Positions 1-62,921 of a stretch of DNA of 64,000 nucleotides are shown here, piece after piece. Both the position numbers and the translations under genes were made by a program. The notes below the pieces were generated by a model, which worked only from the letters and a program-made list of their open reading frames with translations, ran no database searches and was not told where the DNA came from. The stretch's first letter is position 1. Every line of letters begins with the position of its first letter. This DNA is from a virus, in the IMG/VR virus record IMGVR_UViG_3300036861_000275, positions 28,313-92,312 of that record; one strand, given 5' to 3'.

Positions 1-803
1 CCCTGTAGCCGGCGAGGGTGTAACCTATACCAGACCCTAAATCTGCGTTTCCTTGCCAGGTTAGCCAGATCCCTGACTAGGCCCTCCTCGTCCCGCATAT
101 AGGCTATAGACGTACCGGCCACAAGCACTATCGGTGGTTTGCCTGGTAGCAACCTTTTATTTATAGCCTCCGATGCTGGGGCGTCTAGGCGCAGCGATCC
201 AATGATATGCACTTTGTCTGAGTCGAATCCGTGACAAAGAGCATGCGCTAAGGACGCCTTACCCCACACCGCGACGTGGTCAGGCTTGACTAGATAACTA
301 CCCTTCGATGTTAACGTATCCCAGGAAGCAACGATGCCGAGAGTCGGGATACCTAGGCGCCTTGCGGACTTGAACAGATCCGCCTCTTGGCCGCGGTAAA
401 TATCCGTGACCGCAACTATGACGTCAGGTTGAAGCACTTTGAGCGCTTGCACGGTCAGTCTACGTACCGGGATCAGCTTTTCGATACTCCTAGCAAGCCG
501 CTCGCCGTCGCGCACATACCGATCAACAAGACTACATAGCCAGATCTCAAGCCGGAGTCGTGTTGCTCTACGCCTGCCCAGCTTCGTCTTGGCCGTCACA
601 GAACCGTGTCGTTCCCAGGCGGTATAGATGAGAGTCCTGAGAATCCGACGCCGCAGCCAGGATACCGGAGCCGGCGCTTGCACGTCTTTGTCTAACAGAT
701 GTTCCGCCGTGATGCCGGCTCCAGATAGATAGTAATCCATCTTCGCCTGGTACCAGTCGCGCTCCAGGGCCTCGCTCCCTAAGTAGACTAGAACTCGTTT
801 CAT
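1..803 (-). CDS. GT-B fold glycosyltransferase, putative nonulosonic acid transferase (3' end truncated by window edge; not in ORF track)
   Basis: Manual translation from ATG 803 (ATGA overlap with upstream stop) is open to the edge: MKRVLVYLGS...ARRLGIPTLGIVASWDTLTSKGSYLVKPDHVAVWG...IGSLRLD...VWYRLHP. The GIPT/SWD/D..VWG/HP pattern resembles CDP-glycerol-phosphotransferase/sialyltransferase-like GT-B proteins. Confidence 0.7.
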   Translation of the reverse strand, partial: MKRVLVYLGSEALERDWYQAKMDYYLSGAGITAEHLLDKDVQAPAPVSWLRRRILRTLIYTAWERHGSVTAKTKLGRRRATRLRLEIWLCSLVDRYVRDGERLARSIEKLIPVRRLTVQALKVLQPDVIVAVTDIYRGQEADLFKSARRLGIPTLGIVASWDTLTSKGSYLVKPDHVAVWGKASLAHALCHGFDSDKVHIIGSLRLDAPASEAINKRLLPGKPPIVLVAGTSIAYMRDEEGLVRDLANLARKRRFRVWYRLHPRRLQ

Positions 804-1060
804 GGCCTAGGAGGGCTATTGATTTCGATCCAGGCTCGCGCGCCCCATGGTAGAGGCTTGTTTTTGTCGTACACCACCCGACCCATCACGCCCTCGTGCC
901 CACATTGCTGACAGACGGCAGTGAGCGGTATCTGGTGGGCGTAATCCTGTTTACCGTACTTGCCATTACTGATTCGCAGCGGTGGCTTATTCTCGCCTCG
1001 CTTGAGGTTCGAGATGATGGTGTTTTTGCAGACAGTGATGTAGATCAGAAAGCTCTTCAC
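800..1060 (-). CDS. small hypothetical phage protein
   Basis: Probable GTG start overlapping upstream TGA; ends VVYDKNKPLPWGARAWIE. Confidence 0.55.
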   Translation of the reverse strand: MKSFLIYITVCKNTIISNLKRGENKPPLRISNGKYGKQDYAHQIPLTAVCQQCGHEGVMGRVVYDKNKPLPWGARAWIEINSPPRP

Positions 1061-1266
1061 GGCTGGCAAACTGGACACGGTACCATATCGTGTTCAGTCT
1101 CGGGGTCTGCGCAGCAGCAGGTGTCCTCGAAACAGTCATCAAGGACGATGCCTTCTCCGCCGCATTCGTAGCACTCGTCTCCGTCATACTCATCCGGCCA
1201 TTCTTCGGTCCCGTTTGTCTCATCAATGGCATCGTCAGAGTATCGCGGATCATCCGGATTCATCAC
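1057..1266 (-). CDS. acidic Cys-rich (zinc-finger-like) small protein
   Basis: CYECGGEG...CCC...CPVC; packed between neighbours. Confidence 0.6.
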   Translation of the reverse strand: MMNPDDPRYSDDAIDETNGTEEWPDEYDGDECYECGGEGIVLDDCFEDTCCCADPETEHDMVPCPVCQP

Positions 1267-1270
1267 ACCA

Positions 1271-2158
1271 TCACCTTACCTGATGATTGTCCGCGTGGGC
1301 AACAGGAAACTGCTGGATGCGTAGGTCCTCTGGCCATTCGGCCGGATCGCTGCCTTTGCGGTCGCGGATATTGACTGTCTCGATCCTTCCGCTAGCCGTA
1401 AGGTCGCTGTCGTAGACATTAGCCCCTAGCTGCTTGACGAACACTGGTACGCCGTAGCATTGTGCAACCACATCGCGAATCCAGTCGAGGTCGCATGGTC
1501 TAGCGTGAGGCCCGCTCTCGCCGCCTATGATGACCCACTGCTGGGTGCCTTTGTAGGTGAGCCACGTCTTGGGGATCTCGACAGGGCCTAGCAGCGGCTC
1601 TATCGAGAGAAACTGCACGGCGGCCGGCGTAGCTTGCAAGTCGGATATGCGCTGGTCCATGGCGGCCTGATTCTCGATAGAGACGCCGAGCCAGACGTTA
1701 GGGAGGACCGGATAGCCGCGGCGCTGCATAGTCTGCATCGACTCCATCATCCGCTCGGGCCGCTTCGTGAGGACCTGGTAGGTGTGTCGCGGCGTGTGTT
1801 CCATCACGCTGAAGATGGCGTCGATCCACCCGTCCTCGACCTTCTCGTGGAACAGGTCGGACATGGAGTTGACGAAAATCCTCTTGGGCGATTTCCAGCG
1901 GAGCGGTAGATCTAAGGCTTCTTCGATGAACCGGACCTCGCCGGTCCAGCGGGCAACCGTAGCGCTTTCGCCTGTCCCGTCTTCTACGATGCGCTTACGT
2001 CGGGCAAGCCCCTCGTATGGCTGGCCCGGACCAGAGAACCGAGCGGCGATCACCTCGGCATAGCAGTTACGACAACCCTCGGAGACGCGAGAACATCCTC
2101 TGATTGGATTCCAAACCATATCCGTCCAGGAGATTGAGGTCTTACCGGCCACTGGCAA
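1271..2158 (-). CDS. DUF5131 / phage Gp37-Gp68 family protein (three-Cys, radical-SAM-like)
   Basis: WTDMVWNPIRGCSRVSEGCRNCYAE, FVNSMSDLFHE, QVLTKRPER, FLSIEPLLG, WVIIGGESG, FVKQLG. Confidence 0.92.
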   Translation of the reverse strand: MPVAGKTSISWTDMVWNPIRGCSRVSEGCRNCYAEVIAARFSGPGQPYEGLARRKRIVEDGTGESATVARWTGEVRFIEEALDLPLRWKSPKRIFVNSMSDLFHEKVEDGWIDAIFSVMEHTPRHTYQVLTKRPERMMESMQTMQRRGYPVLPNVWLGVSIENQAAMDQRISDLQATPAAVQFLSIEPLLGPVEIPKTWLTYKGTQQWVIIGGESGPHARPCDLDWIRDVVAQCYGVPVFVKQLGANVYDSDLTASGRIETVNIRDRKGSDPAEWPEDLRIQQFPVAHADNHQVR

Positions 2159-3134
2159 CTCGGTCTTCGAGATCCATCACGATCCGTAGGCCCGCTTTAC
2201 CATCCGCCCATCCTAGATACCGTTCGATGTACTCCTGCCGGGCCGACTCAATCATCCCGAATGGCACGAATCCGTACGCGGCTTCGTAGCGCATGCCAGT
2301 TCCGGGCCAACTGTAAAAGTTACGCTCAGACCAGGGATTGAAGTCCACACCTCGGCCGGCGTAAGCGTTCCATCCTCGCGGCGCTACATTCCAGGACGGA
2401 ACATTAGCAAGCACGGCCTCAGCCACTCCAGAGGAGCAATGGTGAATGAAGAGCCCGGCCCGGTTCAACAGCGTCACCGGGTCCTGATTGGCTACTACGT
2501 CGGCAGCGTCGCGCGTGTACTCCGGCAGATACACCTTGTCGCGGGCCGAAACCACCAGCGGCCAGCCTAGCTTGTCGGCAGCCTGCCTGGCCGCCTTCAC
2601 AGTCCGCCGATCCTCGAACTGCATCTTGAGCCAGAAAAGACTGTCAAGGTGGTGCGCGCCCCATGGGAACGGGTAGTAGAGTACCGATTTCGGCGGTAGC
2701 GGTAGCGGATCGGTGGGCCCACTCATAGGATGCCCGACCGGGACGAAGTTTCTAGGAAACAGCCTTTCCTGCCGTTCCTGCCAGAAGCCTAGCCATGCCG
2801 AGCTCCAAGAGTACACGACGTCCCAGTGCTCTGGGTTCAGATAAACCAGATCCGACCACGAAGTCTGGAGTGCGGCGCATATCCCACCGATGCCGCGAGG
2901 ATCAATGTCTAGAGCTGCTGGAACCAGCCAGGCGTCCATGGCCGGTGTCAAGTCATCCGGACCGCGGTAGTGGACCCAGTATGGCAGGCGCTCTCTGCTA
3001 ACCGTGTGCTTGGCGTCACCCGGCTTGGGTCGACCTAGCACATAGACATCATGCCCACGTGCCGTGGCTACTAATGCTGTCCCCTCGCACCAGCGCCATT
3101 GATTAGCTCGCCTGATTACGATGCCTAACTTCAT
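2142..3134 (-). CDS. putative GT-B glycosyltransferase (candidate nonulosonic acid transferase)
   Basis: SWSD, VGHP, HHCSSGVAEAVLANVP (S.++EA..+P GT-B motif), C-terminal DGKAGLRI; coupled (ATGA) to NeuB paralog. Confidence 0.55.
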   Translation of the reverse strand: MKLGIVIRRANQWRWCEGTALVATARGHDVYVLGRPKPGDAKHTVSRERLPYWVHYRGPDDLTPAMDAWLVPAALDIDPRGIGGICAALQTSWSDLVYLNPEHWDVVYSWSSAWLGFWQERQERLFPRNFVPVGHPMSGPTDPLPLPPKSVLYYPFPWGAHHLDSLFWLKMQFEDRRTVKAARQAADKLGWPLVVSARDKVYLPEYTRDAADVVANQDPVTLLNRAGLFIHHCSSGVAEAVLANVPSWNVAPRGWNAYAGRGVDFNPWSERNFYSWPGTGMRYEAAYGFVPFGMIESARQEYIERYLGWADGKAGLRIVMDLEDRVASGR

Positions 3135-4192
3135 ACCAGGTAGCTCCACATGATCGTACTGCCGGCCGGAATATCGACGGCCACACGACGGCCTATCAGA
3201 TACACTTCGTCCGGCGGCTCGAACCCGCCTAGGACGGATGGTCGGCGATAGTCGAAATCATCGCACTTGATAGTATCGCCAGCGTGCAGCGTGCTACTTG
3301 CGAAGGCGCAGCGCCTAGCGGCGGCTTGGCTATAACGTTCGGCCGGGAGGATACGTTTCCTCTCCGGCTTACCTATCGACGTCCAGACATTGTGCATGGC
3401 AAGCACAAAATCCCGAGCCTCGTTTGGCGCTACGGCCGTCGACTGCTCAGGTCCAGCGCTGTGACGATCTAGCGTCAAGTTTTTTTCGATCATAGAGGCG
3501 CCGAGGGCCACTGCGGCGGCATCCACATGCCAGCTCCGAATGTGCGATGAGTAACCGATAGCAGCCTCCGGAAAAGCAGCCATCAAGACAGGTATCTGAG
3601 ACAGGTTGACTCGACGCATCGCGGCTGGGTACCCACCCGCTACTTGGTGTATCATCACTTCGCTGGCGGCATCAATAACGGCGTTGACCGAGCGCTCTAA
3701 TTCTCCCAGCGTTGCGTGCCCGGTATCGAGCAGGATAGGCTTCATAGTCCTAACAGCGATACACCGAATCAATTCCGTGTTTGTGATGTCGCCAGAGCAG
3801 ATCTTGATCGCTTTAACCTTGGCTGCGATGGCTGTATCTAGGGAAGTCTCGGCATTGTCGACCGTCGCGATCAGGTCGAGCCCTAACTCCTCGCAGCGCG
3901 CCCCGACGATCTTCCATTCATCACGGGTCAATGTCCGCCGCTGGAGAGCCGCCCGTTGAGATTCCTCGCGTTCGACACCATCGGCATCGGTAAAGTGGAC
4001 TACGGGAGCGCCTCCGATCAATGTATCCACATCCAATATCTGGACCTTGAGAGCGTCGGCGCCGGCATTGGCCGCACACTCTGCCAGTCTCATGGCAGAC
4101 ATCAGACCTGACATGGTCCCGCCGATTTCAAACGTGATATACGGCGCGAGATCCGATCCTAGCGTCTTGTAGCCTATTCTGATGGTAGCCAT
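3131..4192 (-). CDS. neuB: NeuB-family nonulosonic acid synthase with C-terminal SAF/AFL domain, divergent active site
   Basis: GADALKVQ, KICSGD, GYSSH, MIEKNLTLDR, C-terminal RRP...GRRVAVDIPAG. Confidence 0.85.
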   Translation of the reverse strand: MATIRIGYKTLGSDLAPYITFEIGGTMSGLMSAMRLAECAANAGADALKVQILDVDTLIGGAPVVHFTDADGVEREESQRAALQRRTLTRDEWKIVGARCEELGLDLIATVDNAETSLDTAIAAKVKAIKICSGDITNTELIRCIAVRTMKPILLDTGHATLGELERSVNAVIDAASEVMIHQVAGGYPAAMRRVNLSQIPVLMAAFPEAAIGYSSHIRSWHVDAAAVALGASMIEKNLTLDRHSAGPEQSTAVAPNEARDFVLAMHNVWTSIGKPERKRILPAERYSQAAARRCAFASSTLHAGDTIKCDDFDYRRPSVLGGFEPPDEVYLIGRRVAVDIPAGSTIMWSYLV

Positions 4193-4707
4193 GTGTCTCC
4201 CGCAATAGAAAAGTAGAGACTGTCCCACAGCTTTCCGTTCCAGAACTTGCGGCGTGGTAGCGTCGTGGTGTAGGCGGATAATCTTTCGGCTATAGTCTTC
4301 CAGAAGACTACAGCGTCAGTATTACAGGTGTACACCTCTCCGTACACAGTCTCCAGACGCATCCGCATGAACGCTTCCACCAGTATCGCTTCCACGGTTC
4401 TGCTACCGTACCTAGTCCCGCTATGCCTATACCTAGGGGCTACGATGAGGCTGATTTCAGCAGAGCCGTTCTCTGGCGAGATGTCGGTCAAGCCCGCCAT
4501 CCCCAGGAAGTCATGTTGTCGGACAGCCCAATACCTGTGGCGACTCAATGGGTTACAGACCACGTTACGGTAAAACTCGCGTTGCGACTCTGGCGTAGAG
4601 AGCGTGGCGGTGCGTAGCGCCCCTCGAACACCATTGCGCCACGCCGCTACTTCAACACACTCCTCTTCCGAGAGCGCATCTAGCCGAATGTTAACAGGCG
4701 GAATCAA
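4174..4707 (-). CDS. GNAT N-acetyltransferase (RimJ/PseH-like)
   Basis: WRN, FLGMAGL, AEISLIVAP, G.G, GEVYTCN; sits inside the sugar cluster. Confidence 0.8.
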   Translation of the reverse strand: MIPPVNIRLDALSEEECVEVAAWRNGVRGALRTATLSTPESQREFYRNVVCNPLSRHRYWAVRQHDFLGMAGLTDISPENGSAEISLIVAPRYRHSGTRYGSRTVEAILVEAFMRMRLETVYGEVYTCNTDAVVFWKTIAERLSAYTTTLPRRKFWNGKLWDSLYFSIAGDTWLPSE

Positions 4708-5507
4708 GGCCGAACCTGATATGGAACCATAGGCTGTTCACACTCCTGTAGGCGTTTCACTCCGTGTCCTACCATCGCCTCGGCGTGACGGATGAATTGA
4801 ACGTACTCTGCCAGAGACTGTGGGTCGTGCGCAACAGCATAATCCGCGTTCGTGGATGGCGTATCCTCCAGTCGGGCATGGACTTCGATGATCTCTGCTC
4901 CGGCAGCCACAGCCAGACCACCGGTCGTACGTAGTCTAGTATGGTCACTGAAGCCTACTGGCACCGGCGCCAGCATTCGGCGTAGCTGATAGATGGCGTC
5001 GAGGTGCACGTCTCGGGGAGGCGTCGGATAGGCAGAAACGCAATGCAAGACTCCTCCCAGGTTGCCCACCTGGGCAACCGCCGATGCCACATCGTGGATG
5101 TCCAGCATACCGGTGGACAGCAGTATCGGCGTGCCAGGAAACCGGTCGTGCGCCCGAATGAAGACCGTATCCCTCGCCTCGAAGCTGGCTATCTTGAACT
5201 GCTTGACTAGCGGCGCCACCGCTTCTATATCTTTCGGGAGGTAGACGGTGCACATAAAATCGAGGCGGGTTTCGTGCGCCATGAAGGCTATTTCGTTGAG
5301 CCAGGTCCCCGGGAATTCTATCAGCTTGTAGGCGTCCAGGTACTCAGGGGCCCGCCGTCGCTCACAGATAGCCTTGGCGTCGGACGTCCATTGAAACTTC
5401 ACGGCGTCGGCTCCGGCAGCCTTGGCGTTGGCAACGTGGGCCCGCACCATGTTTCGGTCACGCATGTGCGTGCTGCCGACTTCCGCTATGATGTATGTCT
5501 GGCTCAT
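4704..5507 (-). CDS. neuB: NeuB/PseI-family synthase lacking SAF domain
   Basis: IIAEVGSTH, ADAVKFQ, KIASFE, LSTGM, LHCVSAYP, GFSDHT, IIEVH. Confidence 0.92.
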   Translation of the reverse strand: MSQTYIIAEVGSTHMRDRNMVRAHVANAKAAGADAVKFQWTSDAKAICERRRAPEYLDAYKLIEFPGTWLNEIAFMAHETRLDFMCTVYLPKDIEAVAPLVKQFKIASFEARDTVFIRAHDRFPGTPILLSTGMLDIHDVASAVAQVGNLGGVLHCVSAYPTPPRDVHLDAIYQLRRMLAPVPVGFSDHTRLRTTGGLAVAAGAEIIEVHARLEDTPSTNADYAVAHDPQSLAEYVQFIRHAEAMVGHGVKRLQECEQPMVPYQVRP

Positions 5508-6445
5508 CCCAACATTCCTTTCAGGACATTCGGGTCTAGCTTCCTCGCGGTGCGGCTTGATACTTCTCCTCTCACGGCGCCCACTGTCGCATCGGTGGAT
5601 TTAATGACGTAGTGTTCAAAATCAACCCCGTACACAGAGTTTATGAGCGTCGCGCGTCTAGCCTCGTCCGCCGAGATGACTACTTCATGGAGTTTTTCTC
5701 CGGCCCGCAAAGGAATTCGGCGCTGTTTGGCTCCAGGCGCCACTACTTCAGCTAGTGTCGCCAGACTTGCAGACTCCATCGCCGGGATGTATACCTCCCC
5801 TCCTTCCATCAGGCTTATGGCCGCGATCGCGAAGCCCACCACTCGGTCCATCGTGATCCAGAACCGTGTCGCCTCGGGGACGGTGATGGTGATAGGCAGC
5901 CCGGCCGCGGCCTGCCGGCGCCACGTCAGGATAACCGACCCAGCACTACCTAAGACGTTCCCCCAGCGCGTACAGGAGATGCGTGTATGAGGGCGCCCCC
6001 ATTTATTGGCATGGACGGCGTAGAATTCGGCGGCTAGCTTGCTGGCCCCATAAGCAGTGGCCGGGGCAGCTGCCTTGTCGCTGGAGAGAACCAGCACCTT
6101 CGGCACATTGCGTTTTAGGGCCGCCCGGATCACCTGGATAGTCCCGTCTATATTAATCGAATACATCTCGCGCGGGTCATTCCCGTCTACGCGCTTCATG
6201 GCGGCCGCATGGATGATGGTGTCGATTCTGTGCATGGCGTCGTAGAGCGACTCCGGCGAACGTATGTCGCCGAGAATCCATTCCACCGTGGCAGGATAGT
6301 CCAAGGATTCCCGTAGCTTGGCCTGGACGGATTCATTTCTGGAGTAGGCCACTATCTTCTCGGGCGGCACCTTGGACGCCAGCAGATTCCTGATGAGCGC
6401 GCTCCCGAAAGAGCCCGACGCTCCCGTAATCAGGACTCTCGTCAT
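5504..6445 (-). CDS. pseB: UDP-GlcNAc 4,6-dehydratase (PseB-like, Polysacc_synt_2)
   Basis: ITGASGSFG, HAAAMK, SSDKA, YGASK, RWGNVLGSAGSV, TRFWI, RAGEKLHE. Confidence 0.85.
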   Translation of the reverse strand: MTRVLITGASGSFGSALIRNLLASKVPPEKIVAYSRNESVQAKLRESLDYPATVEWILGDIRSPESLYDAMHRIDTIIHAAAMKRVDGNDPREMYSINIDGTIQVIRAALKRNVPKVLVLSSDKAAAPATAYGASKLAAEFYAVHANKWGRPHTRISCTRWGNVLGSAGSVILTWRRQAAAGLPITITVPEATRFWITMDRVVGFAIAAISLMEGGEVYIPAMESASLATLAEVVAPGAKQRRIPLRAGEKLHEVVISADEARRATLINSVYGVDFEHYVIKSTDATVGAVRGEVSSRTARKLDPNVLKGMLG

Positions 6446-7101
6446 ATCTTGCCCCTGTCGACCAGGGTATTCGCGAACAGAAGGTCGACGGCATCGTTCA
6501 CGTCGACTGACTCTACCGGGTTAACTAAATATGGCACAATACTGAGAGAATCGTACCAGGACTTCGGCTTACGGCACAGCCAATCTGCTCTAGCCCAGAT
6601 GACAGTTCCGTCATGCTTAAGAGCGTCACCTGGCCATCCTGCCGCATGAGATAATACCAGTTTACCTTGGCTGTCCAGAAAACACATATACCGATAGTCT
6701 TGCCTGAATGGCACCATCGACATGACGGCATCCACTGTGCCGTCGTATAGCAATCGAGATTCTACCAGGTGTCGTAGGGTGCGTAATGGCGACGTCGGCA
6801 GGAGTAACGCAAATAGATCCCACTGACCGTGTTTAGGCTGAAGGAACTCTTGAACACATTCCAACGTTCTAGTTGGTTTAGGGTCCTGTTGTGGGTGTAG
6901 GAAGATGTCTTCATATTCCTTAAAACTTTGATCCCAGCCGTCGTATGAGATCGCTATCTCGTCCACGAGCCCCAACCATTTGGCTTGTCGTGCAATCTTG
7001 ACCGCTCGACCCACAAGCGTTTCCCCGCCGACTAGGCGGAAGTTTTTGCGGGTTAGCCGTTCCGAATGGATCTTCACCGGGATCACTGCTAGCGTTCTCA
7101 T
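6442..7101 (-). CDS. neuA: acylneuraminate cytidylyltransferase (NeuA/PseF family)
   Basis: AVIPVKIHSERLTRKN, LLPTSPLR, SVDVNDAVD. Confidence 0.88.
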   Translation of the reverse strand: MRTLAVIPVKIHSERLTRKNFRLVGGETLVGRAVKIARQAKWLGLVDEIAISYDGWDQSFKEYEDIFLHPQQDPKPTRTLECVQEFLQPKHGQWDLFALLLPTSPLRTLRHLVESRLLYDGTVDAVMSMVPFRQDYRYMCFLDSQGKLVLSHAAGWPGDALKHDGTVIWARADWLCRKPKSWYDSLSIVPYLVNPVESVDVNDAVDLLFANTLVDRGKI

Positions 7102-15096: not shown

Positions 15097-15308
15097 TCCC
15101 TTTGTGCCACTTCGTCACCGCGCCATGTGCCGCGGCAGATAAGACGCAACGTCTTCTGATTACTCTCGTCGTGTCTCTTCAGGGCAGTCGTCAACGGGCT
15201 CGCTAGGACACCGTCAAAGGCTCCAAGTATGTATAGACACAAGAAAGTAGGTACTCCGATCACCCCTACGGCTTTAACCCACCACGGCATCCGATCTGTA
15301 GGGTTCAT
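15087..15308 (-). CDS. small membrane protein of lysis region
   Basis: MNPTDRMPWW start coupled to giant-gene stop; one TM segment. Confidence 0.55.
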   Translation of the reverse strand: MNPTDRMPWWVKAVGVIGVPTFLCLYILGAFDGVLASPLTTALKRHDESNQKTLRLICRGTWRGDEVAQRECD

Positions 15309-27244: not shown

Positions 27245-27268
27245 GATGGTCTCTATTGTACCCTGGTA

Positions 27269-40319: not shown

Positions 40320-40681
40320 TACGCGATCTCCTCTTCCCTCCAGGCATATCCTGAAGGCTCTGGGTTAACTGCGTACCGTCTCTCTAGCATGTTCTGAGCG
40401 TGCGTGCCGCGATACAAATGCTCTGGATTACAGCATGGCCGGTTATGGCAGGCGTGCATAATGAAAGGCCCGTCGCCAGGCAGGCCGACTAGATCCGCCA
40501 TCAGGCGGTGAGTGAATATGTGGCGCACTACATTAAGACGCTGAATATCAACTACGCCGTATCCATCACGATCCAGTCTCCCCGTAAACACCCAACAGCT
40601 CCCCTCTACGCGAACACGCGCTACAAGACGTTCGATCGTCCACGGAATTGATGGTCGGCCCATCGGCTTTCCGGTTCTCAT
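40319..40681 (-). CDS. HNH endonuclease
   Basis: CWVFTG...GYG...HRL...HACHNRPCCNPEHL..GT...N. Confidence 0.88.
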   Translation of the reverse strand: MRTGKPMGRPSIPWTIERLVARVRVEGSCWVFTGRLDRDGYGVVDIQRLNVVRHIFTHRLMADLVGLPGDGPFIMHACHNRPCCNPEHLYRGTHAQNMLERRYAVNPEPSGYAWREEEIA

Positions 40682-41988
40682 GCGTGCAACGCTTTCCCAG
40701 CGGCTTTGTGTTGCTGCGCCTTCTCACGCGCGCCACGCGCTCTGCTCTTATCCAGTGACAGCATCCCACTAGCCGACTTGTCGAGCGCGAGCCAAGCCGC
40801 CGCGGAATACTGCAAACGAGCCAGCGAGAAAGCCGCGATGGCAGCTTGCGCTGGTAGATGGAACGTCGGACTACCGAAACTATTCACCACCGCCACAACG
40901 CCGACGGACAGCCAGGCCATGTCCATGGATAGGGGTCGCTTCCACCAGTTACGCCTGACCATCTCATTATTCTTCTGCCAGACAATTCTGGCGGATACTC
41001 CAGCCTGAAGAGCAATCCCCAGCCCTAACACCAGCCCAATCAGGCCGAGCTCGAAAAGCAATTGGTATGGCTCATTGTGGGCCTGTAGCGTCGCAAACGC
41101 CTCGACTTTGCCGGATACGGCGCTCAGTTTCGCGTTGTATTGATCGGCCCAGACTCGCCAGTCGCCAAAGCCTTGACCGATGAGAGGGTACCGGATCAGT
41201 TCAGGCCAGATCGCCTGCCACACTTCTCGGCGTCCAGAGAGTCGCCATTCATGGACTGTCATGACCCAGCTCGCCGCCCCGGTCGCTAGACCAATCACGA
41301 AGTACCTCGTCTTACGCCCGAGATCGGGCCAGATGGCCACAATGATGCCGGCGAAGGCCGACAGAACAGGCCCAGCTGAATGAGAGACCACGATAGGGAT
41401 CAGGATGGCTACCGCGGCCAGCGGGCCAAGAAGGGCCCACATTATCGGAAGCGTCAGGGCCATGATCGAGCCCCAGTAGTTAGGATGTGTCAGGAGCCCC
41501 ATCGCGCGCCCTGTTTGATCCGGCAGAACCCAAGCCATCCACGGATAGATATGGAATAGATTGAGGTAGCCGAGGACCAGCTCGAAACCGACACCAGCGG
41601 CCAGGACCCAGCAGAAGAGACGAGTTCGTGGGATGTCCATGTCCCGCGCAACGGCGTACAGGTAACTCACCAGAAGCGTCAGCAACAGAAGTTGTACCGA
41701 CCGGATTTGAAAGCTATTGATGCCCGCACGGACAACTGCCCATGCGATCAGAGCCGCCAGAGGGATCGAAGCCTTCGCCACCCGAAATATCAGGGCAGCT
41801 GCCCCGGTCAGGACGAGCCACAGAATCGGGATAGCCCGCTCCAGAAGCGGTGTCTGGCCCATCGGGAATGGAGAGATGGCGGTATAACCTATGACCGGGA
41901 CCAACAGCAGGAAACCGAGCGGCAACCATAGCCAAGACATTACGTCCTCAGCCTTGCGCCACTCGAAGGACCGCGGACTCAGATTCAT
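40678..41988 (-). CDS. O-antigen ligase / O-oligosaccharyltransferase family (Wzy_C) polytopic membrane protein
   Basis: About 10-12 hydrophobic segments; G.LTHPN, SGR..VW, PLIGQGFG, AHNEPYQLLFELGLIG, SPTFH. Confidence 0.85.
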   Translation of the reverse strand: MNLSPRSFEWRKAEDVMSWLWLPLGFLLLVPVIGYTAISPFPMGQTPLLERAIPILWLVLTGAAALIFRVAKASIPLAALIAWAVVRAGINSFQIRSVQLLLLTLLVSYLYAVARDMDIPRTRLFCWVLAAGVGFELVLGYLNLFHIYPWMAWVLPDQTGRAMGLLTHPNYWGSIMALTLPIMWALLGPLAAVAILIPIVVSHSAGPVLSAFAGIIVAIWPDLGRKTRYFVIGLATGAASWVMTVHEWRLSGRREVWQAIWPELIRYPLIGQGFGDWRVWADQYNAKLSAVSGKVEAFATLQAHNEPYQLLFELGLIGLVLGLGIALQAGVSARIVWQKNNEMVRRNWWKRPLSMDMAWLSVGVVAVVNSFGSPTFHLPAQAAIAAFSLARLQYSAAAWLALDKSASGMLSLDKSRARGAREKAQQHKAAGKALHA

Positions 41989-48675: not shown

Positions 48676-51129
48676 TTATCCTCCGTGCGCAGCTATTACT
48701 TCTGCGTATAACTTCCGCTCCCAGTCCGTGGCGGCGTTAGGCAAGGAATCCTTGAGTGCTTGGAGACCCTGTCGTGCTATGAATGACTCCACTCTGCGAA
48801 CGCGTTCGGTGTGAAGTGCCTGCTCGGCCGCGCTTACTGGAGCCGCGAGGTGCTGATTCGTGGTATTCGAGGTTGTGGCTACCGGACTACCGTAATCAAA
48901 ATGAAATGGTCCCCCCAGGATGTCGTTAAACTGTTGGCTGAGAACGTAAGCCTGCCCGTTCTTCTGGGTCTTAGATACCTGCTTTGCCCACTGAGGCATC
49001 TCAATGGCTGTTGGTTGATTAGCTATCTCAGCCAAACCGGAGGGGAGCGGCTGGCCAGGTTTAGCTTGTGCCAACCAGTGTTGTAGATCCTGTGCTTGAG
49101 CGGCGCCGTGTGACGGATCGAGCCCGGACATAACCAGCAGATTACGCCATTTCTCGGCGTCATTTACGCCTACCACGTTCTGGAAATCCTTGGCTCTGTT
49201 TGGGTCCTCGATGCCGGCCTTCGTGAAGTACTTGTCACGAACCCACTTCGCTGCCCAGTTTCTCGCCTGCGCTAGGTCGACCATCTGCTTTGCGTACGGG
49301 TCATCTTGGTTCATCGTGCCACTCAGGAACCGTTGCTTGGCAGCAATGAGGTCTTTGGTGCCCTGCGTGAGGTTGGCTGTACCTCCGACGCGCTGCACAG
49401 CGTCGTCTATTTCCCACTGATTACCCGATCCGAGTAGCTGTTGAAGAACGCCGCGTTTCGTGACTTCTCGCTTGTAGCGCGTGTCTACATCCTTCGGGAT
49501 TTCTATGAAACCCGGCTTCGTCGTGAGGGTCTTGTAGACGTCGCTAGCTTCAGGCGACAGCTCGAGAGCATTGCCGGTCTTGAAGGTGGTGGCCACATTG
49601 CCAGCCTTTGACATCTCTGGGGTTACCCTAGTAGCCCACTTGGTGACGTCGTCCGGCCAGTCTCCATGAAATCTGATGCCGGCTTGCTGGGCGATGGTGC
49701 CCCACTTCTCTTGCGCTGTGCCGGGCAGCTTGTTCCAGTAATCTAAGGCTTCCTTACTCTGAATACCGGCCGGCGTGAAGAAGACGTCGTACATGGCCTG
49801 CGCTGATTGATTCTTCGCGTTAGACTGGTTTACGACGAACTGCCCGAGCGTGGACTTCGTGTCCAGCCTCGGCAGGGACTTCAAGGTGCCGTCCCAGATA
49901 GCCTGTCCTACTGTTGAGCGCGCTTCTTGCGAATCCTGTATGGAGTTTATGTCGCCTCCACGCCGGATGACATCGGTGGGGTGGACTCTCCTGACCGCGG
50001 CCTGGAGCATCGCGTTAACGCCCTGATCAATCTGCCCCTCTTCTCCGTAGAAATTGGCTGCCATCACGTTCGGTGCTGATCCGTTCCTGATCGAGTTAAT
50101 CAGCTCCTCGCGCGTGTACATAACGGGCCCGTCTTTGCGGTTGAATTGTTCCGCAATCAGGCCGTCGGCTATTTCTTCCGGTGTCCAGGCGTTTTTGAGA
50201 GTCTCTGTCATAGCAGGGAATCGTTGAGCCATATCCACAGCCGATTGCTGCCGCTTGGCTTGATAAACAGCAGGTTTATTGAAGATGTTGTATAGCAGGT
50301 TGCCGACCGCGATGACAGCGCCGACGTATGGGATGGCTTCAGATGCCGTAACAAGACCCAACTCGGCCGCGGTCGCGGCAGCAGACGTTGCCACTCCGGC
50401 AGTGCCAAGAGCCTTCTGTGTGTCGTCCATCCTATCCCAGTTCTGGGCAAGGTTAATTGCGCCCGCTACCGTGCCAGCTCCAGATCCGACCGCGCCCAGT
50501 GTATGCGATATATCGGGCGATATATTGATGATGCCTAGGTCTCCAGCGCCTCGGATGACGTCGGTGGCCCCACCTACGCCAGAGGCGGCGCGAGCCACCG
50601 GATTACCGCGCTCGTCTAAAACGGCGTTCGCGATATTCCCGAGTCCGCCGGCTAATCCAAGACCCCCAGTAACTTCTCGCGGCACGAGCGGTTCAGTGCC
50701 GCCGGCCAGCTTGTTCACTAGATTGACAGTGTTTACCCCGGTACGACCCATACCTATCATACTACGGAGCGATTGAAGACCTTCGGGTGGTGCTCCACGC
50801 GAACCAGGCACCGAGATAATGCCTCGAGCTGTGCCCTGGACTAATGGCGCCGGCTGTTGGCCTGGCCGTGGCGCATTCTGGGCTATGCTTGACTGTTGCT
50901 GCGGAGGTCCGGATGCCATAGCGTTGCCGCCCAGTAACTTACTGAGCGGCGTCGTGCCGCTGGGCGCCTCGCTGCCGCCTAATAGGCTTCTCAGTGGAGT
51001 CACGCCGGACGGTGGAGGACCCTGTTTCGAGAGATCCGTGCTAGCAGAACCGGTAAAGATTTCCCGCAGCGGCGTGAACTGACCACTGCCAGACGTCTGC
51101 GTCTGCGGGACCTCGATCGGGTCCGCCAT
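48676..51129 (-). CDS. 817-aa unknown protein with N-terminal repeats and glycine-zipper region
   Basis: TPLRE/TPLRS/TPLSK repeats; GxxxG-rich hydrophobic helices; coupled to GT4. Confidence 0.75.
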   Translation of the reverse strand: MADPIEVPQTQTSGSGQFTPLREIFTGSASTDLSKQGPPPSGVTPLRSLLGGSEAPSGTTPLSKLLGGNAMASGPPQQQSSIAQNAPRPGQQPAPLVQGTARGIISVPGSRGAPPEGLQSLRSMIGMGRTGVNTVNLVNKLAGGTEPLVPREVTGGLGLAGGLGNIANAVLDERGNPVARAASGVGGATDVIRGAGDLGIINISPDISHTLGAVGSGAGTVAGAINLAQNWDRMDDTQKALGTAGVATSAAATAAELGLVTASEAIPYVGAVIAVGNLLYNIFNKPAVYQAKRQQSAVDMAQRFPAMTETLKNAWTPEEIADGLIAEQFNRKDGPVMYTREELINSIRNGSAPNVMAANFYGEEGQIDQGVNAMLQAAVRRVHPTDVIRRGGDINSIQDSQEARSTVGQAIWDGTLKSLPRLDTKSTLGQFVVNQSNAKNQSAQAMYDVFFTPAGIQSKEALDYWNKLPGTAQEKWGTIAQQAGIRFHGDWPDDVTKWATRVTPEMSKAGNVATTFKTGNALELSPEASDVYKTLTTKPGFIEIPKDVDTRYKREVTKRGVLQQLLGSGNQWEIDDAVQRVGGTANLTQGTKDLIAAKQRFLSGTMNQDDPYAKQMVDLAQARNWAAKWVRDKYFTKAGIEDPNRAKDFQNVVGVNDAEKWRNLLVMSGLDPSHGAAQAQDLQHWLAQAKPGQPLPSGLAEIANQPTAIEMPQWAKQVSKTQKNGQAYVLSQQFNDILGGPFHFDYGSPVATTSNTTNQHLAAPVSAAEQALHTERVRRVESFIARQGLQALKDSLPNAATDWERKLYAEVIAAHGG

Positions 51130-52151
51130 TAGACCACCAACCTCCGGTAGAGCGCGTCGTGCGAGGTTACCATGTGCTGGTGTTCATGTTCGCGCCTTAT
51201 CTTATCGACTTGTATCGGGCGCGGACGTAACAGGCCCAACCGTTCCGTGCCTAACAGATACGTCAGTTTGGCGTTCCAATCCCAGTCCGTCTTGACCAGG
51301 TATGGACTGTCGGCACCAAGGATTTCTCGGTGCGCTGGTATGTCCGAACATAAGATCGGTACACCTAGAGCAGCGGCTTCCAGGACAATCAGCGGGCATC
51401 CTTCTTCTCTGGATGGAAGCACAAGCACATCGAACGCTCGCAGATATGCCCAACCATCCCGCCTGGCAGGAATGAAGCTAGCATCTATTCCGATACGCCT
51501 CGCTCTCCTGAAAAGTCGTTCATACTCTGCACCGTTGCCCATGAAGACAATCCTGGCGCTGGTCGGCATTCCGTACAAAGCAAGATCCCAGCGCTTCACT
51601 CTATCGAGTCGCCCCACCGCTCCGACTATCTGCTCTTTCGAGGACAGCCCGAGCATGAAGCGGGCTTCTTTCTTCGATAGCGCTAACCTCTCGATCCGGT
51701 TCTCGTCCAAGCCTAGCGGGATCGTAATACCGGACAGCCCTATAGCCTTCCCACGGGCTGCTTGATGATGTGCGACGTGAATAGTGGCAGCAGTGAATTT
51801 CCTGGCCAACCACCGTTCTATTCCAAGCCAGACGTGCCCGCTGAGACCGCGGAAGTGTAAGCCGTGGTGCGTATGTACAACTTGCTTCCCCATCCTGTGC
51901 GCGGAGATCCTGCCTAGTAAGCCGGCCAGCTTGCCATGCGTATGGACCACATCGGCTTCCTGGACAAGGTTGCTGATACGGCCACTCGTCGACACCTGCA
52001 CGCCAGTTGCTTCTATGATAGCGGTGGCCGGACCTTTTGGCATCGCCACCGCGATCTCATGCCCCATGCCCCGTAGTCCGGCTGCTAGAAGTTCCACAGC
52101 TCTCGGACCACCGCCTAGCTCGGCGTCTCCAAGAATATGCAGGATCTTCAC
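51129..52151 (-). CDS. glycosyltransferase family 4
   Basis: MKILHI...GG, HTHG, VGRL..VK, DVLVLPSREEGCPLIVLEAAALGVP. Confidence 0.92.
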   Translation of the reverse strand: MKILHILGDAELGGGPRAVELLAAGLRGMGHEIAVAMPKGPATAIIEATGVQVSTSGRISNLVQEADVVHTHGKLAGLLGRISAHRMGKQVVHTHHGLHFRGLSGHVWLGIERWLARKFTAATIHVAHHQAARGKAIGLSGITIPLGLDENRIERLALSKKEARFMLGLSSKEQIVGAVGRLDRVKRWDLALYGMPTSARIVFMGNGAEYERLFRRARRIGIDASFIPARRDGWAYLRAFDVLVLPSREEGCPLIVLEAAALGVPILCSDIPAHREILGADSPYLVKTDWDWNAKLTYLLGTERLGLLRPRPIQVDKIRREHEHQHMVTSHDALYRRLVV

Positions 52152-52956: not shown

Positions 52957-53166
52957 TTAACGCGGAGTGATGAATGGTGCCTTGATATTATGTTCCACGA
53001 ACTCCCTTTCTACTGGAGAGCACAACATCAAACTGTCTCCATCCAGGTCCTGACCCTGATAGCAGACTAAGTACGGAATTTCGGGCATCTTTACCGCCGC
53101 GCATCCGGTCAGAATCAGCGCCATCCCTAACCCGACCGTGAACCATAGCCAAAACACTCGCTTCAT
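52957..53166 (-). CDS. predicted lipoprotein
   Basis: MKRVFWLWFTVGLGMALILTG|C lipobox; ATGA-coupled to GT2. Confidence 0.65.
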   Translation of the reverse strand: MKRVFWLWFTVGLGMALILTGCAAVKMPEIPYLVCYQGQDLDGDSLMLCSPVEREFVEHNIKAPFITPR

Positions 53167-53879
53167 GCCAGCCTCCTGATGGTAGCGTTTAAATTGATCC
53201 GGTATGTGTCCCATCTTCTCCGCCAGGCCCTATTGGACCGTTGCTTCGGGTGGATAGTGCGAACAGTGAGTGGCTGTTCCAAGTTCCCCATGAAACCAGG
53301 CCGACGGGCCATCTCTAAAAACAGGGCCAGGTCTTGAGACAGATTCCAGCGCGGGTTGTAATTACCGGCTGCCACCACAGCTTTTCTGTCCATGAGGACA
53401 GATGGATGAGCAAAAGGGCTCCGAGCCCAGATTCCGGACAGCATGTCCCTACATTCTCTGTCGGTGGTGGGGTAGTTAACGATACGCTGCCCCGGGTTCT
53501 TTTTACATCTCTCCAAGGTCGCAGATCCAAGGACAGCGTAATGGCCATTAATCGCTGTCCGTAGCTGTCTTTCGAGTCGCGTCGGTGTCATCGCGTCATC
53601 GGCATCAAGCCGAGCTATCCATGGCGAGCTAATTCCGGCGACAGCATCGCGTAGCACCGACGTGATTCCTCTGTGTTCTCGCGCCATCACGATGCAGCGA
53701 CTGTCGTACTCACACTCTGCTTTAGCGATCTTGACGGTGTCGTCATCAGACCCGTCGTCTATCACCATCAGCGTCCAGTCAGTGAAAGTCTGCTGGCGCA
53801 CGGACCGAACGGCCGCTCCGATGAAGTCGGCGGCGTTGTAGGCCGGCAAGACAATGGTGACCGGCGGAGAGAGGCTCAT
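53163..53879 (-). CDS. glycosyltransferase family 2
   Basis: IVLPAYN, IDDGSDD, RLDADD, HPSV, QD..L. Confidence 0.92.
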   Translation of the reverse strand: MSLSPPVTIVLPAYNAADFIGAAVRSVRQQTFTDWTLMVIDDGSDDDTVKIAKAECEYDSRCIVMAREHRGITSVLRDAVAGISSPWIARLDADDAMTPTRLERQLRTAINGHYAVLGSATLERCKKNPGQRIVNYPTTDRECRDMLSGIWARSPFAHPSVLMDRKAVVAAGNYNPRWNLSQDLALFLEMARRPGFMGNLEQPLTVRTIHPKQRSNRAWRRRWDTYRINLNATIRRLA

Positions 53880-54280
53880 TGGCCAGGAGGACAGCCATCC
53901 GCGGTACACGGGTTCTCTTGATCCATAGGCGGAACTGCTTGGCATAGGGTTGACTTAATCAAGCGCCATCCCCCGTCGCTGCCGCTTAGTGGCTGATCAT
54001 CTGCGTCGATGAGGCGGGATGAGACCACCACGATACATTGCTTGATCGGATTCCAAGACGTCGGTGGCTCTGCGCAGGTGGCCACTTGTATCTCTTGACG
54101 CCAGTTCTTCATACCCTGCGGCGCAAACTCAGGCAGGATAGGAAAAAAGTCGTTCCAGACCACGGTACAGGCAATCAGTAAGACAATGCGGAATTGGTTG
54201 CGGAGCCCGGAATGTGCGCCGGGTGGTTTCTGCCGTATGAGGGCAGCGAGCCACTGCTTGCTCCATCTCCGCGACACCAT
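53876..54280 (-). CDS. hypothetical protein with Cys-containing C-terminal region
   Basis: TGATG-coupled upstream and ATGA-coupled to GT2. Confidence 0.45.
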   Translation of the reverse strand: MVSRRWSKQWLAALIRQKPPGAHSGLRNQFRIVLLIACTVVWNDFFPILPEFAPQGMKNWRQEIQVATCAEPPTSWNPIKQCIVVVSSRLIDADDQPLSGSDGGWRLIKSTLCQAVPPMDQENPCTADGCPPGQ

Positions 54281-60359: not shown

Positions 60360-60548
60360 CTAGGCGTCCGTCGCACTCACGTAGGGATTGTGCCGGTTGC
60401 TGCCAGGTTCCGGACATGGCGGGTTCAAGTCTTTGTCGTCACCATCCGGCTCGATCGTGCCATCGGCGAGGGCAATCTCGTTCTGGTCCTCGATACCACA
60501 ATCTAGACACCAGGCTCCGGGCCATCCACTCCACCTATGATTCAGCAT
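60360..60548 (-). CDS. small Cys/His protein
   Basis: H.WSGWPGAWCLDCG..D. Confidence 0.55.
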   Translation of the reverse strand: MLNHRWSGWPGAWCLDCGIEDQNEIALADGTIEPDGDDKDLNPPCPEPGSNRHNPYVSATDA

Positions 60549-60979
60549 TGGTAGAGCACCACCTCGGCTCCCGCCTCGAGAGCGAGAGCCCGAGCCTGCT
60601 CGAGGCTCATCCCCCAGCGATCGACCTTATCCTGCGGTATCGTCGGCGCTACGAAGCGCTTGATACCGGCCGACAGCATCAGCATGGCACATCTGGTACA
60701 GGATAGAAACGGCCATGTGTAGAGTGTCGCCCCTCGGACCGACCTGGTAGCGTTGACCAGCGCGTTACACTCGCAGTGCACGATCAGTTCGTACTTGATG
60801 ACCCGATCGTTAAGGCGCTCTTCTGTGTCCGCAATGCCTGGTGGGAAGCCGTTGTAGCCAGCACCTATGATGATCCGGTTCTCGACAATGACTGCGCCTG
60901 TCTTCGTGCTCGGATCTTTACTCCAACCAGCGATGCTTTGAGCAATGCTCAGGAATCGTCGATCCCACTTCTCATTCAT
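60542..60979 (-). CDS. dCMP deaminase
   Basis: SKDPST..GA, GYNG.P, HCE.NA, C..C. Confidence 0.92.
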   Translation of the reverse strand: MNEKWDRRFLSIAQSIAGWSKDPSTKTGAVIVENRIIIGAGYNGFPPGIADTEERLNDRVIKYELIVHCECNALVNATRSVRGATLYTWPFLSCTRCAMLMLSAGIKRFVAPTIPQDKVDRWGMSLEQARALALEAGAEVVLYQC

Positions 60980-61581: not shown

Positions 61582-62574
61582 TCACTTGGTTTTCTCTTCC
61601 CAGTACGACAGGATGTCCTTCAACGTCTGCTCGAACTTGATTGTCGGGGCCCAGCCCAGCTCTGCCGTTATCTTGTCGTGGCTCCCCCGTAGAACTGGCA
61701 CGTCAGACGGGCGAAGACGGTTCATGTCCAGTCGAATATCTACCTGGTCATCGGTGAGACCGGCCTCCGTCAACAGTGTGTCCAACACGTCAGCTATCTC
61801 CCAGTCTTCCCCTGAGCACAGATTGTAGACTTCGCCCGGCGTCCCTCGCAACAGTAAATCCCAGTATCCCCGGACGATGTCTCGGACGTCGGTATAGTCG
61901 CGTCTCGCCATCAAGTCGCCGACGAAGATGGGGGGATGTTTCTCTCCGGCCTCGATCGCCTTCCGAGCCCTGAGAACTTGGCGGGCGAAGTTCGATGTCA
62001 CGAAATGTTCGCCTCGACGTGGCCCTTCGTGATTGAAGGCCCTGGACCGGATAATCTGTAGACCGTAGCTCTTGAAGTACTGATAGCCCATCAGGTCTTG
62101 AGCTACCTTCGATACTGCGTATGGAGACAGCGGCCGTAGTGGTTGGCTCTCGGAGACAGGTAGTTCCTCCTCGGCGATGAATCCATACTCCTCGCTCGAC
62201 CCGATTACCAGGACCCTGGTGTCTGTCCCGGCCATGGCGGTCCCGAGTACTGCTTCTAGCACGTTCATCTGGCCTATCACATTGTTGGTCAACGTGTGAT
62301 GCGGCTGATCCCACGATGCCCGCACGAACGACTGGGCGGCCAGGTGGATGATGTATCTGTATCCGCTCTCTTCGTTGATCAGATCCTGCACCGACACAGG
62401 GTCCGTCAGCTCACAGTGGGCCAGCCTCAGCCGCGTATTGCCCAACACGCCCTGTAGATTCTCGACATTAGACCGCAGCCGTATGGCGGCGGTGACGTCT
62501 GCCCCCTTGCCGAGAGCGTACTCGACAAAGTGAGAGCCTACGAATCCATTAGCGCCGGTTACTAAGACTTTCAT
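61582..62574 (-). CDS. gmd: GDP-mannose 4,6-dehydratase family SDR
   Basis: VTGANGFVG, HLAAQSFV..SW, SSEEYG, SPYAVSK, FNHEGPRRG..FVT, RDYTDVRD. Confidence 0.85.
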   Translation of the reverse strand: MKVLVTGANGFVGSHFVEYALGKGADVTAAIRLRSNVENLQGVLGNTRLRLAHCELTDPVSVQDLINEESGYRYIIHLAAQSFVRASWDQPHHTLTNNVIGQMNVLEAVLGTAMAGTDTRVLVIGSSEEYGFIAEEELPVSESQPLRPLSPYAVSKVAQDLMGYQYFKSYGLQIIRSRAFNHEGPRRGEHFVTSNFARQVLRARKAIEAGEKHPPIFVGDLMARRDYTDVRDIVRGYWDLLLRGTPGEVYNLCSGEDWEIADVLDTLLTEAGLTDDQVDIRLDMNRLRPSDVPVLRGSHDKITAELGWAPTIKFEQTLKDILSYWEEKTK

Positions 62575-62921
62575 CGGGACGCCTGGATCGCTCTCCGCAG
62601 CAGAGCTATGACGTCTCTTTTTTCCGTGCGTAGGTCGTCGTTGAAATTTTCCACCGAGAAAGCCAGCCAGATTGGCTTGTTGATCGTATCCTTCAGTAAC
62701 CCTAGAGTGTTTTCGACGGTCCTCTTCGGGGCGTGTAGGCGGCGCGCACAAACCAAGACGGCTCCATTGAGACAGAAGCGCACAGCTTCCCGATCGCGAA
62801 TATTGGTCCAGGTCCCGTCGCGTAGTTGCGCGTTACCGCCTTGACACCAGGCCCTTCGCCCGCTGAGAAGTTTGAGCGCCCGTTGCAGCACCATCCGCGT
62901 CGTCACTTTACGGTTGATCAT
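62571..62921 (-). CDS. DUF6197-like protein, copy 3
   Basis: AWCQG..A...FCLNGA...FND. Confidence 0.7.
   Translation of the reverse strand: MINRKVTTRMVLQRALKLLSGRRAWCQGGNAQLRDGTWTNIRDREAVRFCLNGAVLVCARRLHAPKRTVENTLGLLKDTINKPIWLAFSVENFNDDLRTEKRDVIALLRRAIQASR

Follow-up and report, generated by a model that had tools for sequence, protein, structure and literature searches.

A conserved phage operon predicted to make and attach sialic-acid-like sugars

Related systems in bacteria and phages

In Helicobacter and Campylobacter, CMP-pseudaminic acid is made by the PseB-PseC-PseH-PseG-PseI-PseF pathway. An operon in an uncultured soil phage shares with this pathway a PseB-like dehydratase with the catalytic motif, a DegT aminotransferase, a GNAT, a NeuB-family synthase, a CTP_transf_3-type activator, and the operon organisation. 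However, every score is below the NCBIfam equivalog cut-off, there is no GT28-type PseG, the aminotransferase is nearer to LegC and perosamine synthase, and there are three synthase paralogues, two of them without a SAF domain and one with a changed metal site. The bacterial Pse-type clusters that carry the same variant NeuB (signature xEKT/N, xxDTGx), for example locus L019 of the Oleiphilaceae MAG OZ246020, also combine it with PseB, DegT, a cytidylyltransferase and a second, canonical NeuB. In contrast to the phage, these bacterial loci have in addition a PIG-L deacetylase, formyltransferases and a GT28-type PseG, and their canonical NeuB has its own SAF domain. In the phage, the variant is instead coupled to an orphan GT-B protein.

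Two glycosylation systems are also relevant. In general O-glycosylation by PglL-type O-oligosaccharyltransferases (Neisseria, Acinetobacter), lipid-linked glycans are moved en bloc to periplasmic Ser/Thr. The phage resembles this system in having a Wzy_C membrane protein, GT4-type assembly enzymes and exported Ser/Thr-rich candidate acceptors, but the acceptors would be virion proteins, and no initiating transferase or flippase was found on the contig. Virion glycosylation by phage glycosyltransferases is established for mycobacteriophages, in which these enzymes are reported to decorate capsid and tail proteins (Freeman et al. 2023, PMC10527164). Those phages carry only a few transferase genes, two in the example that we saw (PMC11256854), and we saw no sugar-synthesis genes reported for them, whereas the phage studied here encodes whole predicted sugar-synthesis pathways, including nonulosonate enzymes. 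We found no paper describing a nonulosonate cluster in a phage.

Gene content of the operon and of the phage contig

The analysis concerns a 64,000-nucleotide stretch of DNA (the window; positions 28,313 to 92,312 of IMG/VR virus record IMGVR_UViG_3300036861_000275). The surrounding 92-kb contig (G000; CheckV estimate 80% complete) is a genuine phage contig that also carries terminase, portal and capsid genes. The original prediction described tightly coupled NeuA/PseF-like, PseB-like, NeuB, PseH-like GNAT, second NeuB and GT-B genes, followed by a second GT-B, downstream of the replication genes, and this observation is confirmed. All the named ORFs exist on the minus strand, with start/stop overlaps of 4 to 19 nt (Table 1). 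Some corrections are needed, since the DUF5131 gene and a 92-aa ORF had been overlooked, and the PseF-like and PseH-like assignments rest on weak scores. Moreover, the operon does not end at the window edge, but continues for a further 8.9 kb to the left. Window 1-7101 is the upstream half of a 16-kb, roughly 19-gene operon (G000 19453-35413).

Table 1. Predicted features of the operon within the window and of the remaining contig
Position (window, unless stated)	Strand	Predicted product	Supporting data
6442..7101	-	219-aa divergent CMP-sugar cytidylyltransferase (PseF/NeuA-like)	PseF E 3.4e-4, CTP_transf_3 E 8e-3 (both weak); hallmark motifs AxIPxK..S.RL..KN and LLLPTSPLR; VIPVK..SERL..KN and LLLPTSPLR conserved in the G001 orthologue; hhalign to the phage's second cytidylyltransferase E 1.2e-4
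5504..6445	-	313-aa PseB-like UDP-GlcNAc 4,6-dehydratase (short Polysacc_synt_2 SDR)	PF02719 223 bits; TIGR03589 (PseB) 249 bits, below its 408-bit cut-off; best solved relative H. pylori FlaA1/PseB 2gn4, 181 bits, E 3e-52; S-D-K ... Y..K catalytic motif kept
4704..5507	-	267-aa NeuB-family synthase with canonical catalytic residues, no SAF domain	PF03102 151 bits, no SAF hit; residues matching NmNeuB E25, K53, Q55, K129, S132, E134, S154, H215, H236 and D247 kept
4174..4707	-	177-aa GNAT N-acetyltransferase (PseH-like role)	Acetyltransf_3 E 4e-9; PseH 36 bits, below its 93-bit cut-off
3131..4228	-	NeuB+SAF of a variant subfamily; real start probably the ATG at 4192 (353 aa)	PF03102 161 bits plus SAF; H236->N, S154->D, E134->D, D247->E, N29H30->TM; R314 kept
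2142..3149	-	335-aa orphan GT-B enzyme, either a sugar-nucleotide hydrolase/2-epimerase-like protein or a CMP/CDP-donor transferase	No Pfam hit; AF2 pLDDT 91.9; at least 500 PDB GT-B hits; Z 19.8 to NeuC 5zlr and 18.4 to TagF; three family members hit Glyphos_transf
1271..2158	-	295-aa DUF5131 protein (radical SAM superfamily subgroup)	PF07505 E 1.8e-80; Cx6Cx2C motif
800..1078	-	92-aa ORF	phrog_8676 E 6e-14
3..803	-	N-terminal 267 aa of a 422-aa GT-B protein (full ORF G000 27847-29115, running 465 nt past the left window edge)	12 homologues; Atlas model matches a Glyphos_transf cluster at TM 0.85; CapG 2-epimerase E 1.4e-3
40678..41988	-	436-aa, 8-TM Wzy_C (O-antigen ligase / O-oligosaccharyltransferase-like) protein in the virion module	PF04932 over its cut-off; also present in G001
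51129..52151	-	340-aa GT4 glycosyltransferase beside the portal region	Glycos_transf_1 E 2e-17
53163..53945	-	260-aa GT2 glycosyltransferase	PF00535 E 1.2e-25
60542..60979		dCMP deaminase	
61582..62751	-	389-aa GDP-mannose 4,6-dehydratase-like SDR	PF16363 E 2.9e-75

Left of the window lie a DegT aminotransferase, a third NeuB (333 aa), a second cytidylyltransferase, an SDR, two methyltransferases and three GT4s. The original prediction had noted that no PseC-type aminotransferase was visible, and that it might be off-window. The DegT protein, the only one on the contig, resolves this point, since it is encoded 3.6-4.7 kb left of the window start. It scores 138 bits with the PseC model (cut-off 424 bits) and 176 bits with LegC, its best model, and its best solved relatives are perosamine synthases, so that it resembles GDP-sugar aminotransferases more than PseC. 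The two cytidylyltransferases score 64 bits and 20 bits with the PseF model (cut-off 206 bits). The three NeuB-family proteins score 123-182 bits with PseI (cut-off 340 bits), and the NeuB model scores higher in each. With respect to a legionaminic acid pathway acting on a GDP-sugar, the SDR scores 66 bits with LegB, below GalE, no hexapeptide-repeat (LegH-type) acetyltransferase was seen, a GT-B protein resembles hydrolysing NeuC/LegG at Z 19.8, and no GDP-GlcNAc-forming enzymes were identified. None of the cluster ORFs scanned hits PF04101 or TIGR03590, the families expected for PseG, and no canonical NeuC or LegG was recognised by sequence.

Elsewhere on the contig, no Maf (MptE-like, PF01973) transferase was found at E <= 0.1. 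There is no Bac_transf hit for an initiating phosphoglycosyltransferase, in a search that did not cover the WecA/MraY-type family PF00953 as such, and the Wzy_C protein is the only multi-TM protein, leaving no candidate for a flippase. In view of the incompleteness of the contig, the host or the missing part may supply these functions. The Wzy_C gene lies in the virion module in both this phage and a diverged relative (G001), and four neighbouring proteins have Sec-type signal peptides and 18-23% Ser+Thr.

Synthase paralogues and predicted GT-B proteins

The 267-aa NeuB and the 333-aa off-window paralogue both keep the two metal-binding His residues (H215 and H236 in N. meningitidis NeuB) and the E25, K53, K129, S132 and S154 set. 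Both end before the SAF domain, which supplies Arg314 to the active site in the N. meningitidis enzyme. Only the third paralogue has SAF, with the RRP motif, and this protein belongs to the family by homology but has a remodelled active site, lacking one metal-binding His and a phosphate-binding Ser. The same changes occur in its G001 orthologue and in 28 database clusters, which define a distinct subfamily with the second metal His replaced by Asn or Thr. In bacteria, the variant is an extra gene inside otherwise complete Pse-type clusters, beside a canonical synthase, and all five genomes checked hold at least two NeuB genes.

The 335-aa protein is predicted to adopt a GT-B fold with two Rossmann-like domains. 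The 422-aa protein is GT-B-like by profile and by the Atlas structure search, and is a remote paralogue of the 335-aa protein (hhalign of the two family profiles, probability 98%, E 2.6e-13). The two proteins belong to an orphan family between sugar-nucleotide 2-epimerases and TagF-like transferases, and either could be the missing sugar-nucleotide hydrolase rather than a transferase. The 335-aa protein stays next to the variant NeuB in three contigs that were retrieved. DUF5131, listed within the radical SAM superfamily (PMC9477430), is absent from G001, but syntenic in another locus (L096).

Predicted pathway and possible acceptors

The original prediction inferred that the phage makes its own nonulosonate and transfers it onto virions or the host surface. 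This interpretation is partly supported: the locus is phage-borne, the enzyme families are those of CMP-nonulosonate synthesis, and GT-B proteins follow them, but the product cannot be called pseudaminic or sialic acid, and the acceptor is inferred only. In the explanation that we favour with moderate confidence, the PseB-like dehydratase, the single DegT aminotransferase and the GNAT would make a 2,4-diamino-2,4,6-trideoxyhexose nucleotide, one of the two orphan GT-B proteins or a host enzyme would remove the nucleotide, a NeuB-family synthase would condense the sugar with PEP, and a cytidylyltransferase would activate the product. It is a difficulty that the only aminotransferase resembles GDP-sugar enzymes, whereas PseB acts on a UDP-sugar. 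The duplicated set (three NeuBs, two cytidylyltransferases, an extra SDR, two methyltransferases) implies either two different nonulosonates or a tailored one. The remaining GT-B, the three GT4s, and the GT4 and GT2 elsewhere on the contig would assemble a glycan, most likely ending on the phage's own exported, Ser/Thr-rich virion proteins through the Wzy_C ligase-like protein. While the gene families, the predicted fold, the conservation under purifying selection and the phage context are established by the analysis, every chemical step and enzyme activity, the identity of the sugar and the acceptor are inferred from sequence and predicted structure alone.

The absence of a Maf, together with two orphan GT-Bs, several GT4/GT2 enzymes and a Wzy_C ligase-like gene, suggests a lipid-linked en-bloc route, which in view of the missing initiating transferase and flippase would depend on the host. 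A more far-reaching version, possible but doubtful, is that the glycan is built on a host lipid carrier and ligated by the Wzy_C enzyme in the periplasm onto secreted virion proteins, a sugar-coating route that has not been described for tailed phages, and that the variant NeuB with an obligate GT-B partner is a new enzyme pair making an atypical ulosonic acid. If the phage really coats its particle, or its host, with a sialic-acid-like sugar, glycan-based camouflage and receptor biology would extend to tailed phages, with consequences for phage persistence in soil, immunological recognition and host range. The variant NeuB subfamily and the orphan GT-B family, uncharacterised enzymes of both bacteria and phages, could explain atypical nonulosonic or higher-carbon ulosonic acids whose genes are unknown, and the compact operon, predicted to be co-transcribed, is well suited to heterologous reconstitution.

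Alternatively, the product may modify the host envelope (LPS core, O-antigen or capsule) rather than virions, with the Wzy_C protein acting as a WaaL-type ligase or Wzy polymerase, so as to mask receptors against superinfection or change the host serotype. The Wzy_C family includes O-antigen ligases and polymerases, phage-encoded Wzy and nonulosonate-tailoring enzymes that act on the host capsule are documented in Acinetobacter (PMC9241936, PMC12053666, PMC6586298), and a phage without its own initiating transferase and flippase must plug into host envelope machinery. However, the documented cases that we found involve one or two phage genes, not about 20, and the Wzy_C gene lies inside the virion module among signal-peptide-bearing structural proteins, so that this alternative appears rather unlikely. 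It is less likely still that the window's half of the operon does not make a classical nonulosonate, and that the canonical pathway is the set lying left of the window. In this view, the variant NeuB with its inseparable GT-B neighbour (and DUF5131 where present) would carry out different chemistry, such as a second condensation or a tailoring step giving an atypical or higher-carbon ulosonic acid. The conserved, remodelled active site, the occurrence as an extra gene in bacterial clusters and the adjacency to the GT-B protein are in line with this possibility, but the variant keeps E25, K53, Q55, K129, S132, H215 and R314, and on sequence alone ordinary synthase activity with an altered metal site is equally possible.

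Hypermodification of phage DNA by the sugars is very unlikely. Phage glycosyltransferases that decorate hydroxymethylated bases are known (Pyle 2024; bioRxiv 10.1101/2023.12.21.572611), and a dCMP deaminase is present, but there is no thymidylate-synthase-like hydroxymethylase on the contig, the terms pseudaminic and legionaminic occur nowhere in that preprint, and the membrane Wzy_C protein and exported acceptor candidates point to the envelope. Finally, a host LPS locus joined to phage DNA by misassembly, which the original prediction had named as a possible refutation, is excluded, as is a decaying cargo. We found no evidence for either: phage genes flank the region on both sides and on the same strand, and the GC content is even along the window (0.55-0.61). 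In the independent relative G001, the same seven genes, in the same order, follow the same replication genes at 53-72% amino-acid identity, pN is far below pS, and dN/dS is 0.11-0.19 in the four genes for which dS could be computed.

Extent and gene content of the sugar operon

The original prediction described a tightly coupled set of sugar genes at the left end of the window, and this observation was confirmed. From 7101 down to 1, the minus strand carries a run of ORFs whose stops and starts overlap by 4-19 nt, and HMM scans identified them as listed in the table. The cytidylyltransferase match is weak, but it is strengthened by two hallmark motifs, VIPVK..SERL..KN and LLLPTSPLR, both of which are conserved in an orthologue. 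The PseB-like protein is closest to H. pylori FlaA1/PseB (E 3e-52) and keeps the S-D-K...Y...K motif. A DUF5131 protein, which the original prediction did not list, is also part of the run. DUF5131 is a subgroup of the radical SAM superfamily (PMC9477430), and the protein here carries a Cx6Cx2C motif. The GTG start of the SAF-bearing NeuB gene at 4228 overlaps the GNAT gene by 55 nt. The orthologue and the database record begin at the position of the ATG at 4192, which is the likelier start. A scan for promoters and terminators was at chance level.

Features of the window and of its left flank (window coordinates unless stated otherwise; the record as a whole is designated G000)
Position	Strand	Feature
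6442-7101	-	weak cytidylyltransferase match
5504-6445	-	PseB-like short SDR
4704-5507	-	267-aa NeuB without SAF domain
4174-4707	-	GNAT
3131-4228	-	NeuB with SAF domain (variant)
2142-3149	-	335-aa protein without family hit, predicted GT-B
1271-2158	-	DUF5131 protein
800-1078	-	92-aa ORF
3-803	-	start of the 422-aa ORF, predicted GT-B, that runs off the window
G000 19453-35413		sugar module, about 16 kb
3.6-4.7 kb left of the window start	-	DegT aminotransferase
15305-27244		3,979-aa ORF
32790-43053		region with four signal-peptide-bearing structural-module proteins
40678-41988		Wzy_C protein
42995-43975		capsid gene
51129-52151		GT4, next to the portal region
53163-53945		GT2
59435-60979		RNA ligase-like, RusA and dCMP deaminase genes
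61582-62751		GDP-mannose 4,6-dehydratase-like (Gmd-like) SDR

The operon extends beyond the window. In the 28 kb to the left, the edge ORF is a complete 422-aa gene, which is followed on the same strand by an FkbM-like methyltransferase, an SDR epimerase/dehydratase, a clear CTP_transf_3 cytidylyltransferase, a third NeuB (228 bits, no SAF), a DegT aminotransferase, a GT4, a methyltransferase and two more GT4s. HNH and other phage genes come next. The aminotransferase that was not visible to the original prediction lies 3.6-4.7 kb left of the window start, and it is the only DegT on the contig. It resembles LegC and perosamine synthases more than PseC. Since its best solved relatives are perosamine synthases, GDP-perosamine synthesis is also conceivable.

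The original prediction had named misassembly with a host LPS locus as one outcome that would overturn it. The window is bases 28313-92312 of a 92,312-bp IMG/VR virus record. This record, which CheckV estimates to be about 80% complete, encodes a terminase, a portal, a capsid protein and exonucleases, and the GC content is even along the window. A second viral contig of 67.8 kb (G001) has the same replication genes followed by the same seven sugar genes in the same order, at 53-72% amino-acid identity. This contig lacks DUF5131 and is cut inside the 422-aa gene. Synonymous sites are saturated between the two, while pN is 0.18-0.30, and dN/dS is 0.11-0.19 in the four genes where dS could be computed. 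Misassembly and gene decay are therefore excluded. Among GenBank phages, a megablast search with window 1-7500 and a tblastn search with the terminase found nothing, and the variant NeuB has only hits of 26% identity or less. Scans of viral contigs with a single protein and with alignments returned G001 as the only relative, and the genome scan with the 422-aa family found nothing.

NeuB paralogues and predicted GT-B proteins

The three NeuB paralogues were aligned to N. meningitidis NeuB. The 267-aa protein and the 333-aa protein from the left flank keep the catalytic set, except that N29 is Thr in the 267-aa protein and that the E134 position aligns to Cys in the 333-aa protein. Both lack the SAF domain. 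The SAF-bearing protein keeps E25, K53, Q55, K129, S132, H215 and R314, but differs at several other positions, with N29 H30 changed to TM, E134 to D, S154 to D, N184 to G, H236 to N and D247 to E. Among 113 database homologues, the 28 nearest clusters share this signature (xEK[T/N], xxDTGx, KICSGD, PE[H/Q]x), whereas all the more distant ones are canonical. In this subfamily the second metal His is replaced by Thr or Asn and Ser154 by Asp, and no characterised member was found.

In bacterial genomes (loci L014-L022, for example L019:7917-9011), the variant sits between DegT (or PseB) and a cytidylyltransferase, inside Pse-type clusters of Alphaproteobacteria, Paraburkholderia, Oleiphilaceae, Saprospiraceae and others. 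In one annotated case, L019, the cluster also holds a PIG-L deacetylase, a GT28-type PseG, formyltransferases and a canonical NeuB with its own SAF domain. All five genomes checked have at least two NeuB genes. The variant is therefore a conserved extra enzyme and not a decayed copy. It was considered whether it generally serves as an obligate SAF donor in a heterodimer with a SAF-less paralogue. This idea was down-weighted as a general rule, because the bacterial canonical partner that was checked, in L019, has its own SAF domain. A structure prediction for the complex of the SAF-less NeuB with the SAF-bearing variant scored 0.00, which counts neither for nor against a heterodimer.

In phage-like contigs, the variant is followed directly by the 335-aa GT-B protein. 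This is the case in the present record, in G001 and in the metagenome contig L096, and probably also in a 4,554-bp ENA contig, although the latter is judged only from two homologues (P0002 and P0167) that are both recorded from an ENA contig of this size. DUF5131, which is absent from G001, lies again downstream of the variant NeuB and the GT-B gene in L096.

The GT-B assignment in the original prediction is right. A first AF2 model of the 335-aa protein, built from 3 sequences, was unusable (pLDDT 39.8), but with 40 homologues from an exhaustive profile search the protein is predicted to adopt a GT-B fold at pLDDT 91.9. By VIA-align, the best matches are hydrolysing and non-hydrolysing sugar-nucleotide 2-epimerases (NeuC 5zlr at Z 19.8), TagF (Z 18.4) and GT1 enzymes (Z about 17.5), scores that are too close to separate. 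A few family members hit Glyphos_transf, and the Atlas neighbours are mostly viral hypothetical clusters, with minority Glyphos_transf, polysialyltransferase and LIC12162 labels. The 422-aa protein has 12 homologues, and its family keeps an invariant R-x-H-P-R motif. Its Atlas model matches a Glyphos_transf cluster at TM 0.85, and it is a remote paralogue of the 335-aa family (hhalign probability 98%, E 2.6e-13). Profile searches of the two families against PDB sequences gave only marginal hits, among them a CapG 2-epimerase for the 422-aa protein. Either protein could be the missing sugar-nucleotide hydrolase (the PseG, LegG or NeuC role) or a CMP-donor transferase, and the data do not decide between these alternatives.

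Possible destination of the glycan and relation to known systems

The interpretation that the phage makes its own nonulosonate and transfers it to virions or to the host surface is partly supported. The gene families, their conservation and the phage context are observed directly, whereas the chemistry and the acceptor are inferred. The enzyme kinds are those of bacterial Pse/Leg clusters, but no protein reaches an equivalog threshold, so that the sugar cannot be named. The contig carries further sugar genes outside the operon, namely the Gmd-like dehydratase, a GT4 and a GT2. It also encodes a Wzy_C protein with eight predicted TM segments, which is the only multi-TM protein on the contig. 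The Wzy_C gene lies beside the capsid gene, and G001 has one too. Four proteins of the structural module, which flank the Wzy_C and capsid genes, begin with classical Sec signal peptides and are 18-23% Ser+Thr. On the contig there is no Maf, no Bac_transf initiating enzyme, no flippase-like protein and no ThyA-like hydroxymethylase. The simplest reading is a lipid-linked glycan that would be started and flipped by host enzymes, and that Wzy_C would ligate to exported virion proteins. Ligation to host LPS or capsule is the main rival.

The papers found on phage genes acting on nonulosonates describe single tailoring enzymes or a Wzy polymerase acting on the Acinetobacter capsule (PMC12053666, PMC6586298, PMC9241936). 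Virion glycosylation is known for mycobacteriophages (PMC10527164), and the example seen has two transferase genes (PMC11256854). Literature searches found no report of a phage-encoded nonulosonate pathway. Particular to this phage are the three NeuB paralogues, including a member of the variant subfamily, the pair of orphan GT-B proteins, and the likely link to a Wzy_C en-bloc route.

Outside the sugar genes, the long 3,979-aa ORF lies between the replication and the structural genes, and the RNA ligase-like, RusA and dCMP deaminase genes lie near the right end of the window.
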